64,000 nucleotides of DNA from Escherichia coli O157:H7 (GCF_013167455.1 NZ_CP038328.1); one strand, 5' to 3'. Counted from the stretch's first letter, positions 27,028-34,825 are shown. The notes: a model not told the origin generated them from the letters alone. Made by a program: numbers and translations.

Positions 27028-28077
27028 TTAACGGAGTCTATAGCCTTCTTCTAGCACCGCCTGTGTTCGAACGAGTTCATCCGCGAGTCGTTTTTCATCA
27101 GGTAGTTGCATCTTATATTCACTCGCCAGAACGGTGTTAGGCAAACCAGCCAGTGCATAATGCGCTTCTCCGACTCCTTTCTCTGCACAGAGAACCAGAC
27201 CGATGGGCGGATTTTCATCCGGTAGCGTCCAGTGCTCTTTGGCGTAGTTGAGATACATATTCATCTGTCCGGCATCGCTATAGCTGAATTTGCCCACTTT
27301 TAGATCGACGATTAGCAGGCAGCGTAAACGGCGGTGGAAAAACAGCAGATCGACACGAAACCAGTTGTCATCAATGCGTAACCTTCGCTGCCGACCAACA
27401 AAGGCAAAATCATCCCCAAGTTCCAGCATGAAATCCATCAGGTGGTTGATCAGCGCCTCCTCAAAATCGGATTCTGAGTATTCATCTTTCAATTCCAGAA
27501 ATTCGAGCACAAAGGGATCGCGTATCGCCTGTTGCGGAAGAATATGCGTCTCGGCAGGAGCGTGTTGTTGCAGCATGGCTGATTTGTCATGTGACAGCAG
27601 TGTTCGCTCATAAAATTGGGTCGCAATTTGCCGTTCTAGCTGGCGAACAGACCAGCCACAGCGGAGCGTCTCTTTTTCATAAAAGCTGCGGGTGTCAGCG
27701 TTTTTAACGGAAAGTAAACGGACGTAAGTGGACCAGGGCAATGGTGTTAATTCGCCAGACACTGTCTGGCGAATTTCAACATGTTGAAAAAAGAGGTAAA
27801 AAAGCCTCATTTGGCGTAAGTTTTTTGCAGAGAACCCACGCTTATACCTTAGACTTAAATCCTTTGATAGTCGCTTGATTAGCTGCGCACCATACGCAGC
27901 CCTGGCCTCGCCACCTTGTTCAAATTCGACAATTCGTCGGCCAATTTCCCAGTATGTCGCGGTCATCAGCGCGTTAACGCTACGTACCGTTTCCGTCCGG
28001 GCGCTATCGACCAGGTGAATAATACCGTCGTGGATTTGCTGGTAGCCTGTTGAGGTTCTCTCTGAGAGCGATTCCAT
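27028..28077 (-). CDS. yhcG: DUF1016 / PD-(D/E)XK nuclease-like protein YhcG
   Basis: 349-aa ORF; C-terminal nuclease-like motifs ...RVDLLFF... and ...IVDLKVGK...; convergent with nanQ; begins 183 bp after the gltD stop. Confidence 0.8.
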   Translation of the reverse strand: MESLSERTSTGYQQIHDGIIHLVDSARTETVRSVNALMTATYWEIGRRIVEFEQGGEARAAYGAQLIKRLSKDLSLRYKRGFSAKNLRQMRLFYLFFQHVEIRQTVSGELTPLPWSTYVRLLSVKNADTRSFYEKETLRCGWSVRQLERQIATQFYERTLLSHDKSAMLQQHAPAETHILPQQAIRDPFVLEFLELKDEYSESDFEEALINHLMDFMLELGDDFAFVGRQRRLRIDDNWFRVDLLFFHRRLRCLLIVDLKVGKFSYSDAGQMNMYLNYAKEHWTLPDENPPIGLVLCAEKGVGEAHYALAGLPNTVLASEYKMQLPDEKRLADELVRTQAVLEEGYRLR

Positions 28078-28260
28078 TATCTTTCCCTTTATATGGCGCA
28101 GTGTTGAATAATGGAATCAGCTATACGCCGGGCATCTGCCGGTAACAATCCAGATGTGCGTATTACATTGGTTTTCTTCAGATTATGCGAGGCGCTTTCC
28201 AGAACGAAAGGAGAATTTCAGCGCCGACTCTTTTCTGAGGAGGCGGCGCTGGGACAGAGC

Positions 28261-29691
<1,431 letters not shown>

Positions 29692-32600
29692 TTACTGCGC
29701 CTGCACGCGCAACTCTGCTGCGCTACGACTACGATGACCCAGCAGTGCTTTGACATCACTGGACTTCGGTTTAACCAGCGCAAATTTAGTGGCGAAGGTT
29801 GACCAGTTCGCCAGAATCTCTTCACCACGCTGGGAACCGGTATGCTGCACATGCTCGGTGATAAGACCACGCAGATGCTCTTCATGGATCGCCAAATCGT
29901 CAACGCTTAATACTTCCACCAGTTCCGGGTTAACGCGTTTGCGGAAATCGCCGCTTTCATCGAGAACGTAAGCGAAGCCGCCGGTCATACCCGCACCGAA
30001 GTTAACGCCGGTTTTACCCAGAATACAGACGATACCGCCCGTCATATATTCACAGCCGTTGTCGCCAATGCCTTCTACCACGGTGATTGCACCGGAGTTA
30101 CGCACGCCGAAACGTTCACCCGCGCGGCCTGCGGCATACAGACGACCACCCGTCGCTCCATACAGGCAGGTGTTGCCGATAATACTTGCTTCATGGCTGC
30201 GGAAGGCGGAACCAACCGGAGGACGAATGGCGATTAAGCCGCCCGCCATGCCTTTACCGACATAGTCGTTGGCATCACCGGTCAGGTACAGTTCCACGCC
30301 GCCCGCGTTCCACACGCCGAAGCTCTGGCCTGCGGTGCCGTTGAAGTACGCTTTAATCGGATCGGCTGCCAGCCCCTGATCGCCGTGCGTCTGGGCGATA
30401 TAGCCTGAAAGCGACGCGCCGACAGAGCGGTCGGTGTTGCGGATATCGAACCAGAAGGTTTTGCTCTGGCGCTCATCGACAAACGGTTTCGCCTGTTGCA
30501 GCAACTGCGCGTTCAGCAGGCCGTTATCAAACGGCGGGTTGGTTTCGGTGCAGTAGAGTGCCTTACCTGGATGCGGTTCGGCGGTCTCCAGCAGCTTCGA
30601 CAGCGCCAGTTTCTGCTGTTTGGCGGTGAAACCGTCCAGCTCTTTCAGCAGGTCGGTGCGACCAATCAGATCCACCAGACGTGTTACGCCAAGCTGTGCC
30701 ATCAGCTCGCGGGTTTCACGGGCGATAAACTCAAAGTAATTCGTCACCTTGAACGGCAGGCCGTGATAGTGATTCTTACGCAGTTTGTCATCCTGAGTTG
30801 CCACACCCGTTGCGCAGTTGTTCAGGTGGCAAATACGCAGATATTTACAGCCGAGCGCGACCATTGGGCCAGTGCCGAAGCCGAAGCTTTCTGCGCCGAG
30901 AATCGCCGCTTTGATGATATCGACACCCGTTTTCAGGCCGCCATCGACCTGCAAACGGATTTTATGACGCAAGCCGTTGGCAACCAGCGCCTGTTGTGTT
31001 TCAACAAGTCCCAGCTCCCACGGACAGCCTGCGTATTTCACCGATGAAAGCGGACTTGCGCCGGTGCCGCCGTCATAGCCTGCGATGGTGATTAAATCGG
31101 CATAAGCTTTCGCCACACCGGTGGCGATGGTGCCAACGCCCGGTTCGGAAACCAGCTTCACGGAGATCATCGCTTTCGGGTTAACCTGCTTGAGGTCGAA
31201 AATGAGCTGCGCTAAGTCTTCGATAGAGTAGATATCGTGGTGCGGCGGCGGGGAGATCAGCGTCACGCCCGGCACCGAATAGCGCAGTTTGGCAATGTAA
31301 GGAGTGACTTTGTCGCCCGGCAACTGACCGCCTTCGCCCGGCTTCGCGCCCTGGGCGACTTTAATCTGAATGACGTCGGCATTGACCAGATACGCCGGAG
31401 TAACCCCAAAGCGACCGGAAGCCACCTGCTTGATGCGCGACACTTTGTTGGTGCCGTAGCGCGCCGGGTCTTCACCACCTTCACCGGAGTTCGAGTTTCC
31501 GCCGATGCTGTTCATCGCTTCCGCCAGCGCCTCGTGGGCTTCCGGGCTTAACGCGCCGATAGACATCGCCGCGGTATCGAAGCGTTTAAACAGTTCGCTT
31601 GCCGGTTCAACATCGGCAATGTTGACCGCGTTTTCACCCGGCGTAATTGCCAGCAGATCGCGCAGCGTGGTTGCCGGACGCTCATTAACCAGCTTCGCGT
31701 ATTCCTGATAGTCGCTATACTCGCCGCTCTGTACCGCCTGTTGCAGCGTGCGCACCACGTCCGGGTTGTAGGCGTGGTATTCGCCGCCGTGGACGTATTT
31801 CAGCAGGCCGCCCTGGCTGATGGGCTTGCGCGCCAGCCAGGCTCGTTTCGAGAGATTCAGCAGATCCTGCTGGAAGTCTTCAAAGCTCGCCCCCCCAATG
31901 CGGCTGACCGCCCCCTGGAAGCACAGGCCCACTACATCATTGTGCAGACCGACCGCTTCAAACAGTTTCGAGCAGCGGTAAGAGGCGATGGTGGAGATGC
32001 CCATTTTGGACATGATTTTGTACAAGCCTTTGTTGATGCCGTTACGGTAGTTGAGCATCACGGTACGATAATCTTTGGCAATCGCGTGGGTGTCTACCAG
32101 GCGGCCCAGCGTTTCATAGGCAAGGTACGGATAAATAGCCGTCGCGCCGAAACCCAGCAACACGGCGAAGTGGTGCGGATCGCGGGCGCTGGCGGTTTCG
32201 ACGATGATGTTGGCATCGCAACGCAGGCTTTGATCGACCAGACGGGTCTGGATCGCGCCAACCGCCATTGGAGCCGGAACCGGCAGGCGATCTTTAGCGA
32301 TATTCCGGTCGGAGAGCACCAGCAGCACGGTGCCGCTACGTACCATTTTTTCGGCTTTGTCGCACAGCTCTTTGACCGTCGCTTCGAGCGTGGTTTTGGT
32401 GACGTCAAAGGTGATATCCAGCGTATCTGCGCGGTAGTGCTCCTCTTTCATCGTCGTGAGCTGTTTGAAATCGGAGTAGAGCAGAATCGGCGATTTAAAG
32501 CTTAAACGGTGCGCCTGGCCCTCTGCTTCGCAAAAGACGTTCATTTCACGACCGATACTGGTGGCGAGCGACATAACATGCGCTTCACGCAGCGGGTCGA

Positions 32601-34245
32601 TTGGCGGGTTAGTCACCTGGGCAAACTGCTGGCGGAAGTAGTCGTAAATAATGCGCGGCTGACTGGAGAGCACGGCGAATGGGGTATCATCGCCCATCGA
32701 ACCGACCGCTTCCTGACCGTTTTCGCCCAGTACGCGAATTACGGAGTCCAGCTCTTCCGCGCTGTAGTTAAACTGTTTCTGGTAGCTGGCAAGCGTGTCG
32801 TCGTCCAGTTCGCGGCTACCCACTTCTTCATCGGGCAGATCTTCAAACGGTACCAGTCGGCGGACGTTTTTCTCCATCCACTCTTTATAAGGGTGGCGGC
32901 TTTTCAGATCGTCATCGGTTTCTGCCGAGTGCAGAATACGCCCACTGCGAGTGTCGATTACCATCAGTTCGCCTGGCCCGACGCGGCCTTTTTCGACCAC
33001 TTCGTCAGGCTGGTAATCCCAGATACCGACTTCAGAGGCGCAGGTGATGAGCTTATCTTTGGTGATGACGTAGCGCGCCGGACGCAGACCGTTACGGTCG
33101 AGGTTACAGGCAGCAAAACGACCGTCAGACATCACGATGCCCGCCGGGCCATCCCACGGCTCCATATGCATGGAGTTAAAGTCAAAGAAGGCACGCAGTT
33201 CCGGGTCCATATCCGGGTTGTTCTGCCAGGCGGGTGGTACTAATAGACGCATGGCGCGGATGATATCCATCCCGCCTGCCAGCAGCAGTTCCAGCATGTT
33301 ATCCATCGAACTGGAGTCAGAGCCGATTTCGTTGACGAACGGTGCGGCGTCGTGCAGGTCAGGGATAAGCGGTGTCTGGAATTTATAAGTACGCGCACGC
33401 GCCCATTGGCGGTTACCGGTGATGGTGTTGATTTCACCGTTATGCGCCAGGTAGCGGAACGGTTGCGCCAGCGGCCAGCGCGGTACGGTGTTAGTGGAGA
33501 AGCGCTGGTGGAACAGGCAAATGGCCGATTCCAGACGCAGGTCCGCAAGATCTAGATAAAAGCGCGGCAGATCCGCCGGCATACACAGACCTTTATAGAT
33601 GTTCACCAGATTCGACAGGCTACAGACGTAGAAGTCTTTGTCGGCTTCGAGACGCTTTTCAATGCGGCGGCGGGCGATAAACAGACGGCGCTCCATATCG
33701 CGCGGACGCCAGCCTGCCGGGGCGTTCACAAAAATTTGCTCAATGCGTGGCAGAGAGGAGAGGGCGATTTCACCCAGCACGCCTTCGTTAGTGGGGACAT
33801 CACGCCAGCCCACAATCGACAAGGTTTCGCGTTGCAGCTCTTCTTCAACGATGCGGCGTGCGGCAGCGGCGAGTTCAGGATCTTTATTCAGGAAGAGCAT
33901 CCCGACGGCGTAGTTTTTCGCTAAACGCCAGCCGCGCTCCTGCGCAACGATGCGAAAAAAGCGATCCGGTTTTTGTAACAGCAAGCCGCAACCGTCACCG
34001 GTTTTACCATCGGCGAGAATCGCGCCACGGTGCTGCATGCGGGCCAGTGCGTGTATTGCAGTACGCACTACCTTGTGGCTAGGTTCGCCTTCTATGTGGG
34101 CGATCAGGCCGAAACCACAGTTATCCCTCTCAAGGGATTTATCGTACAACATATCGTGAACCTCCCCCAGGCTCTGCGGGAACCCCACTTCCGAACCGCT
34201 GCGCACGGGCACAGAAAGAGCGTGGCGACGGGGTTTGCGTGTCAT
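29692..34245 (-). CDS. gltB: Glutamate synthase (NADPH) large subunit
   Basis: 1517 aa from ATG 34245 ([12 protein letters not shown]...), with the Ntn amidotransferase Cys after the propeptide (...RDNCGFG); ORF-track start lies 5 codons upstream. Confidence 0.95.
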
Positions 34246-34825
34246 ACGCGCGCCTCGCATTCGCCCCCTTGTTGTCCTTTTCGCATCGGTTAATACGGTG
34301 AAGAGGGGATCTCAATTACTGCATAAATATGATGAGCAGGCTGCTCATCCAGAAAGCTTCCAGCGGATTTCCAACTTATCGGGAAAGCTGATACAGGTCA
34401 AATGGCAAGCTTATTGGTACAGAAATGTGCTTTAGCGCAAAATTCTTTATTAATTGACTGAAATTAAAATGGATTTTCTAATTAAGGCTAAAAGGGGCGT
34501 CGTTAGAGAAACAGCCAATTCCTGACTGTCATAAAGGCGTGTTAACCCTTATCCTGCCTTGAACTGACGAGAAAACCAGCATTTTATACTGCCTTAATTG
34601 GTAATGACGTTTCATGCTACTGTTTTGCCTAAAATCCATAAGGAGATAAAAAAATCTGACACAAGATAAGCAAAAGTGATTTATGTGATTATGCATGAAA
34701 TTTCGGTAATTTTGATTGGTTATGCAGTTGATAAAAGCAGGCCGGGACGATTGATCCAAGTCATCGCCGAATTGAGCTAAAAATGGCAGGCTTTGGCCTC
34801 TTTTCAAGGCGCGGTCTATCAGATT

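Follow-up and report, generated by a model that had tools for sequence, protein, structure and literature searches.

A palindrome conserved as structure, not sequence, within yhcG, a predicted nuclease gene of Escherichia coli O157:H7

What does a gene for a nuclease-like protein do on its own between the nan operon and gltBD of Escherichia coli O157:H7? We addressed this question in a stretch of 64,000 nucleotides (hereafter the window), in which the gene is the already known E. coli yhcG, of a known family; its sequence there is 100% identical to that of O157:H7 genomes, in which it is annotated as yhcG. The account at which we arrive, that of a two-module predicted nuclease from a mobile family linked to restriction-modification (R-M), with a palindrome-encoded linker and with the roles proposed below, is one that we hold, taken as a whole, with moderate confidence.

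The gene, its neighbours and its protein

The gene and its surroundings are as follows.

26504..26968, plus strand: nanQ, convergent with yhcG (ORF list)
27028..28077, minus strand: yhcG coding sequence, short allele, 349 aa, ATG start (ORF list)
28070..28118, minus strand: 11-nt inverted repeat of the yhcG 5' leader, GATTCCATTAT / ATAATGGAATC (sequence reading)
28261..29679, minus strand: gltD, co-directional with yhcG and followed by gltB on the same strand (ORF list)

A preliminary description of this DNA had reported the position of the frame, its convergence with nanQ, its co-direction with gltD and the lack of an operon partner, all of which agree with the ORF list, the adjoining ORFs being nanQ and gltD. 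No restriction, methylase or integrase gene was found beside yhcG within ~12 kb, where the ORFs were taken as core (nan operon, gltBD); ORFs farther away in the window were gauged by length only. The neighbours nanQ and gltD stand where a Type I R-M-embedded gene would have adjacent hsdM and hsdS, no ORF of the window is a cognate DNA methyltransferase flanking yhcG of the kind that marks Type II R-M, and the locus has no integrase, transposase or ends of an integrated element. The G+C content is ~0.48 across yhcG, against 0.53-0.61 in most flanking segments, and is likewise low on the nanQ side (0.46-0.52). In the leader, the 3' arm of the inverted repeat spans the yhcG ATG and the first codons, so that the repeat, which a K-12-type strain has too and which folds only marginally better than shuffles (z -1.8), could occlude translation initiation.

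The protein is made up of two domains, with the putative active site in the second.

27604..28023, minus strand: DUF1016_N helical domain, residues 19-158, split by the linker (Pfam PF17761)
27076..27534, minus strand: YhcG_C PD-(D/E)XK nuclease domain, residues 182-334 (Pfam PF06250)
27253..27423, minus strand: catalytic-type residues E219 (27421-27423), D243 (27349-27351), D258-L-K260 (27298-27306) and Q271..Y275 (27253-27267) (conservation)

With both Pfam domains far above their gathering scores (DUF1016_N, E 5.1e-44, 150.1 bits vs a cut-off of 32.8, profile positions 2-137 of 137; YhcG_C PDDEXK, E 1.2e-56, 191.3 bits vs a cut-off of 32.5), YhcG is a full member of the YhcG/DUF1016 family (COG4804). 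The family was placed in the PD-(D/E)XK superfamily in 2005, with the motif E-D-E(I/L/V)K, which the residues of YhcG fit. The catalytic E...D...(D/E)xK motif is intact in the window, and alignments of 28 and of 123 diverse homologues show each of E219, D243, D258, K260, Q271 and Y275 to be either invariant or conserved to at least 90%. The two stretches that the preliminary description had quoted as typical of such nucleases, RVDLLFF (residues 241-247, including D243) and IVDLKVGK (residues 256-263, including D258 and K260), are both present, in agreement with the Pfam YhcG_C match.

An AlphaFold model from a shallow alignment of 19 close relatives only had a pLDDT of 45; redone with 123 diverse sequences, the model reached 82.5 overall and ~90 in the nuclease domain, with a predicted restriction-endonuclease-like alpha/beta core fold, an all-helical DUF1016_N region and a low-confidence coil at residues 97-114. 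Sequence and profile searches found no relatives of YhcG in the PDB, and relatives appeared only through fold comparison, the closest being the repair nuclease NucS/EndoMS, with restriction enzymes among the weaker structural matches. Pfam domains, conserved motif and model together therefore give good predictive support to a nuclease fold with an intact active site, the very point on which the preliminary description had proposed a profile search and a structure prediction as checks; both support it. YhcG is thus well supported, by prediction, as a two-module protein in which a helical DUF1016_N domain is joined to a C-terminal NucS-like PD-(D/E)XK nuclease domain whose catalytic motif is complete. 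A literature search found no report of metal-dependent phosphodiester cleavage by YhcG. Among the protein databases, NCBIfam has no model for YhcG, PHROGs matches it to a family of unknown function and PADLOC to the PDC-S02 candidate models (E 4.3e-136, residues 8-344). A ParB-HTH match in the second half of the N-terminal domain was rejected as not significant (E 0.11), each half matching DUF1016_N only.

Polymorphism, palindromes and breakpoints at the E. coli locus

In E. coli, yhcG is an accessory gene, with a presence/absence polymorphism at a variable junction. Of 5426 E. coli genomes, 5425 have the flanks of the locus and only 3709 (68%) the nuclease domain, so that the gene's placement at a variable gltD junction, as previously described, holds: the domain is missing from 32% of complete genomes. 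Five arrangements or alleles were distinguished.

O157-type arrangement: gltD-yhcG-nanQ
K-12-type arrangement: gltD-gltF-yhcA-yhcD-yhcE-yhcF-yhcG-nanQ
IS-interrupted yhcG alleles: IS481-family, IS1-like and IS3-family
Truncated allele: N-terminal yhcG stump joined to foreign DNA
yhcG-less allele: gene fully absent

Compared with K-12-type loci, O157:H7 (window 22000-34300) lacks the gltF-yhcA-yhcD-yhcE-yhcF fimbrial-like cluster that divides gltD from yhcG. In the truncated allele (L004 2070-2550) the C-terminal two thirds of yhcG are swapped for ~480 bp of unrelated DNA, in which a 101-aa ORF annotated 'transposase' has no Pfam match. As the yhcG of the window has no partners, as a third of E. 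coli lack the gene and as IS-disrupted and frameshift alleles exist, yhcG may be dispensable in this genome.

Within the gene and just past it, two palindromes were read from the DNA.

27749..27775, no strand assigned: intragenic palindrome AATTCGCCAGACA-G-TGTCTGGCGAATT, perfect 13-bp arms, at linker residues ~101-110 (EIRQTVSGEL) (sequence reading)
26988..27012, no strand assigned: extragenic palindrome ATTCTGCAGACA-C-TGTCTGCAGAAT, 15 nt past the yhcG stop, between the convergent nanQ and yhcG (sequence reading)

The long allele has two further palindromes, within a 78-bp segment that is missing from the window. The arms differ between the E. coli copies and every copy is self-complementary. 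The window has two occurrences of the core pattern vs 0.05 expected, and the fold z-scores are -5.3 for the intragenic unit of the window, -10.3 for the three-unit allele and -3.9 and -4.7 for the extragenic palindrome. Per E. coli genome the palindrome is found at 1-4 places, all at the gltD-nanQ locus among the matches listed. Among close relatives in Escherichia, Salmonella, Citrobacter and Pseudocitrobacter, most of the variation in protein length lies in the linker, which has 1-3 units of I-x-Q-T-x-S-(G/A)-E, and the protein ends add small differences; in one relative (P0020) the stop codon is lost and the extragenic copy is translated as ILQTLSGES. Tandem Repeats Finder reported no repeats in the short or the long allele because the palindrome units are too diverged, and no Rfam match was found in 26500-28500 at E up to 1. 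A terminator and promoter scan called neither palindrome of the window, and their tails are not T-rich; they lack the U-tract that follows the G+C-rich hairpin of an intrinsic terminator.

The standard YhcG, found in a K-12-type strain as well as in O157:H7 strain 4276, has 375 aa, and the window protein is that of strain 4276 minus 26 residues and otherwise identical (protein alignment). Compared with these two strains, the window lacks 26 codons between residues 111 and 112, with a 2-bp TG microhomology at the junction.

27738..27741, minus strand: junction of the 78-bp in-frame deletion, with loss of PLGIPQTPSAEFPSAKIWQTLSAKSF and of the long allele's palindromes 2 and 3 (DNA and protein alignments)

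The loss keeps the reading frame and falls in a loop predicted to be disordered, and the resulting one-repeat form of 349 aa is common in Escherichia. The preliminary description, right as to motifs and orientation, had overlooked both the in-frame loss of 26 codons and the palindromes. The exact junction was found in 212 of 5426 complete E. coli genomes, nearly all of them O157:H7 among the matches listed. The deletion is consistent with a lineage marker of the LSPA-6 typing scheme, the second yhcG allele of which is presumably 78 bp longer. It has been reported that the LSPA-6 scheme types O157:H7 lineages by amplicon length at six loci, yhcG among them, that the lineage I amplicon of yhcG is 394 bp and that a 392-bp allele, with a 2-bp frameshift, also circulates in O157:H7.

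Three independent rearrangements of the locus each have a breakpoint at or beside a palindrome. The deletion of the window takes out palindromes 2 and 3, and in the truncated allele the foreign DNA meets yhcG no more than 1-2 bases from an edge of palindrome 3. In the yhcG-less allele only a single palindrome separates the gltD-side flank from the nanQ-side flank; this sole remaining palindrome between gltD and nanQ (L003 2096-2124) has the arms of intragenic copy 1, as does a copy directly after the gltD stop in a K-12-type strain (L084 1489-1515), and the homology of the window with the yhcG-less allele ends at the extragenic palindrome 26988..27012. With copies on the gltD and nanQ sides, the ~8-kb gltF-yhcG segment is therefore bracketed by palindromes, its absence leaving one hybrid copy; no recombinase was identified for this segment. 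The length polymorphism used in lineage typing would thus arise because the palindrome is prone to recombination, whatever its function.

On the gltD side, the O157 junction is not at a palindrome. Just 3' of the gltD stop, the O157 arrangement has a G+C-rich inverted repeat, CAGCGCCGACTC / GAGGCGGCGCTG (window ~28205-28240), which may be the gltBD terminator in O157; K-12-type strains have a yhcG-type palindrome at this place.

The family and its linker palindrome

DUF1016 is a very large, horizontally mobile accessory family, often found in Type I R-M operons, by integrases and on plasmids or ICEs. It comprises 25,215 clusters at 50% identity (E up to 0.001). The 79 best homologue loci from reference genomes and MAGs, at 42-64% identity (best aligned segment) to E. 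coli YhcG, span Beta-, Gamma- and Deltaproteobacteria, Acidobacteria, Cyanobacteria, Verrucomicrobia, Nitrospirae, Bacteroidetes, Elusimicrobia and archaea, and this spread across phyla at such identity suggests horizontal transfer. Homologues were found on 510 plasmids, 191 of them conjugative, and in only 15 phage records. In the immediate neighbours at the 79 loci the commonest Pfam families were N6_Mtase (11), Methylase_S (8), HsdM_N (6), Phage_integrase (5) and ResIII (4), these counts and those below coming from crude ORF calling at the 79 best matches and standing without a background rate. Clustering of the flanking ORFs gave the following neighbours.

HsdM-like methylase: 13/79 loci, 11 of them at -1
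HsdR: 10/79 loci, 8 of them at -2, plus 4 loci with HsdR of another type
HsdS: 9/79 loci, 8 of them at +1
Integrases, two clusters: 7 and 5 of 79 loci, mostly at -1
RadC: 8/79 loci, various positions
Second DUF1016 paralogue: 7/79 loci, 4 of them at +1
TOTE primase-helicase: 4/79 loci, various positions

At 13 of the 79 loci Type I R-M parts surround the homologue, in the fixed order hsdR-hsdM-DUF1016-hsdS, with hsdM or hsdS adjacent in 9-13 of the 79 loci. Others have reported that DUF1016 is enriched beside inverting hsdS genes (odds ratio 17) and that it is carried on Rickettsia ICEs and other mobile elements. A survey of this kind had been proposed by the preliminary description, and its outcome is a link of the homologues to Type I R-M (HsdM-like methylase in 13/79), integrases, RadC, TOTE and plasmids. 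Other settings occur. The DUF1016 gene of an unrelated metagenomic organism (L088 1-5086) is flanked by gyrA and secA, and the gene for a large subunit of glutamate synthase is close by; as in E. coli, the surroundings are of the housekeeping kind and include no defence genes. At the locus of another homologue (P0206, L085) a Fic-domain gene directly follows the nuclease gene.

Across this family, the linker palindrome is conserved as structure, not as sequence, in nearly all homologues from different phyla, and its copy number varies. The unit has the consensus ATT-NNN-CAGAC-A-N-T-GTCTG-N'N'N'-AAT (~27 bp), and distant homologues have 1-8 such units in the corresponding linker, where the residue that follows I varies together with the two that follow S, in exactly the manner expected from reverse complementarity. 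Taking as palindromes those with arms of at least 9 and at most 1 mismatch, we counted 95 in 11.2 kb of linker DNA vs 24 in the remaining 73.7 kb of the same genes, and ~69 of 74 genes from other phyla (about 93%) have at least one in the linker. The symmetry extends up to a 1-nt centre in 57 of the 95. Where the linker peptide has diverged (PIRDALRLES, PIGYAVRSQL and IHNGVVE in distant homologues), the DNA is still palindromic.

Codon choice is biased toward keeping the dyad symmetry. When synonymous codons were shuffled with the protein fixed, the longest perfect arm had a mean of 4.7, vs an observed median of 11, and 43 of 74 genes had an observed arm longer than that of any of 300 shuffles; for the central Thr, 73% of units use the codon ACA, vs 15.5% elsewhere in the same genes. 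Double-sided changes were seen in 12 of 13 pairs, with 220 compensatory cells vs 74 in shuffles and a covariation score of 0.45 vs at most 0.11 with partners slid; the units entering this count had been chosen as palindromes beforehand, so that the percentage paired is partly circular. G.U pairs are rare, about ten times rarer than outright mismatches. An apparent excess of A.C over G.T, from which a strand preference might have been read, arises mostly at the outermost position, beyond the conserved dyad.

In 944 kb of flanks of homologues the palindrome type is rare and, where present, lies beside frameshifted or second DUF1016 copies. A dispersed repeat of the REP/BIME or RPE kind was rejected on these grounds, there being 2 copies in the window, few in the 944 kb and one locus in E. 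coli among the matches listed. The many-repeat linker of homologue P0206 (33% GC; L085 3140-3345) alternates ATTCGCCAAACA-G-TGTTTAGCGAAT and TAAAGACAA-G-TTGTCTTTA, the latter with the peptide SKDxLSL, and its repeat unit thus holds two hairpin-type dyads. The DUF1016 paralogues at 7 of 79 loci are often adjacent (L021 ~890-970; L058 ~610-745; L052, L053 and L057 just outside called ORFs), and perfect palindromes (arms 12-13, no mismatch) persist in copies with an apparently broken frame, which may be pseudogenes or MAG assembly errors. Our literature search found no paper in which palindromes are linked to yhcG or DUF1016. The palindrome appears to be undescribed, unlike the gene, its family, its PDC-S02 label and the typing polymorphism, all of which are known.

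What then might the palindrome do? One reading, to which we give an appreciable probability on the lower side of even, is that it is a functional cis-acting DNA element that travels in the nuclease gene and is recognised by the DUF1016 protein or by a host factor. It would most likely act at the DNA level, as a hairpin, a cruciform or a symmetric site recognised in cis, and might serve self-regulation, self-marking or the recombination and mobility of the gene. A feature of the DNA is preferred here over an mRNA hairpin because Watson-Crick pairing is strict and the symmetry runs through the centre. Such an mRNA hairpin in the coding region, steering translation, mRNA stability or termination, would account for the strong predicted folding (z -5.3 for the window unit, -10.3 for the three-unit allele) and for extragenic copies at the places expected of terminators; it is improbable all the same, as G.U pairs are about ten times rarer than mismatches and sense-strand wobble is not favoured, as complementarity runs into a 1-nt centre that a hairpin could not use, and as there is no U-tract, terminator call or Rfam match.

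The palindromes may equally have no function. Template switching that perfects quasi-palindromes is established in E. coli, and the protein motif I-x-Q-T could fix one arm, which such switching would then copy onto the other. We regard this as quite plausible, if not an even bet: copying would yield just such symmetry to the very centre with almost solely Watson-Crick pairs, and in a linker that is a low-confidence loop the peptide of the second arm may vary freely. What it explains less readily is that at least one unit is kept in about 93% of genes across phyla, though loss in frame is easy, that the non-coding copies past the yhcG and gltD stops and in the empty site remain perfect, and that units with a wholly different peptide remain palindromic. 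Should the cis-element reading be true, DUF1016 genes would be self-contained 'nuclease plus site' modules, with the linker peptide largely a by-product; should the palindrome have no function, it is still a striking self-perpetuating quasi-palindrome that shapes protein sequence across phyla.

What YhcG may do, and comparison with known systems

For the protein, we tentatively propose, at something short of an even chance, a structure-directed, predicted Mg2+-dependent endonuclease that is an accessory in genome conflict. YhcG would be a Mg2+-dependent DNA endonuclease, its target would be a DNA structure (hairpin, cruciform, branch or mismatch) and not a simple sequence, and it would serve restriction systems or mobile elements as an accessory conflict nuclease. 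A defence function stays a candidate, with a role in replication or repair as a live rival; in a preprint, one PDC-S02 homologue was tried against T4, T5 and T7 and was not among the four protective systems. The suggestion in the preliminary description of a remnant of a defence or mobile module is thus upheld as regards the R-M and mobile linkage of the family; that the gene is a remnant may be surmised, and the homologue tried did not protect.

In the rival role YhcG would be no conflict gene; it would be a chromosomal maintenance nuclease for replication-blocking or recombination intermediates (hairpins, cruciforms, stalled forks). The reported synthetic lethality of a yhcG deletion with hypomorphic dnaB, dnaN and parE alleles (Hu et al. 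2009) speaks for this, as do the closest predicted fold, that of the repair nuclease NucS/EndoMS, and one distant homologue beside gyrA. Such a role is nevertheless unlikely for a gene that is missing from 32% of complete E. coli genomes and disrupted in others, that is distributed patchily, as if by HGT, at ~60% identity across phyla, and whose homologues hold fixed positions within Type I R-M operons. An intact frame with every catalytic residue, a deletion that is in frame and within a loop predicted to be disordered, a one-repeat form of 349 aa common in Escherichia and Pfam domains both covered end to end make it rather doubtful, in turn, that yhcG here is a functionless leftover of a former module kept by drift alone, as might be thought from its lack of partner genes, from the many E. 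coli lineages in which it is lost, truncated or IS-interrupted and from the 2-bp frameshift allele that circulates in O157:H7. Very improbable is an orphan Type II restriction endonuclease cutting a specific short sequence: the PD-(D/E)XK fold and the restriction enzymes among the weaker structural matches would suit it, but the window locus has no methyltransferase, a sequence-specific enzyme without protection would be lethal, the complete Type I systems in which the family sits come with a nuclease of their own, and the closest predicted fold is NucS and not a Type II enzyme.

The interest of YhcG lies in DUF1016/YhcG being among the largest uncharacterised nuclease families (~25,000 clusters at 50% identity), recurrent in Type I operons and mobile elements. 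The palindrome within the gene is a concrete candidate for a substrate or control site, and it accounts for the typing polymorphism of O157:H7 and for rearrangement of the E. coli locus.

With the YhcG/DUF1016 family the window protein, which is E. coli's own YhcG, shares both domains and the E-D-(D/E)xK motif, and differs in that its allele lacks 26 linker residues of the K-12 reference. NucS/EndoMS, an archaeal and actinobacterial endonuclease for mismatched and branched DNA, has no detectable sequence similarity to YhcG, even by profile, and an entirely different N-terminal domain. YhcG matches the PADLOC PDC-S02 models at up to E 4e-136, but PDC-S02 is itself a candidate system only. The LSPA-6 marker scores the length of the yhcG amplicon, of which the window has the short form with an O157-specific junction, but the typing papers make no mention of the palindromic basis of the indel.

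The DUF1016 homologues that fill a fixed slot between hsdM and hsdS resemble the effectors embedded in Type I R-M operons, such as PrrC, the gene of which is embedded in this way in the EcoprrI locus. The yhcG of the window differs from them in adjoining no hsd gene. Palindromic elements conserved in structure include the Rickettsia palindromic elements (RPE), which lie in frame within genes, integron attC sites and REP elements. Like these, the yhcG palindrome is tolerated in frame, keeps its structure while its sequence varies and is associated with rearrangements. Unlike them, it is not dispersed, being restricted to a single gene family and, among the E. coli matches listed, to a single locus; compared with RPE and attC it is also much shorter, with no recombinase or transposase partner identified. 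As for the slot between hsdM and hsdS, other accessory genes have also been reported between core hsd genes.
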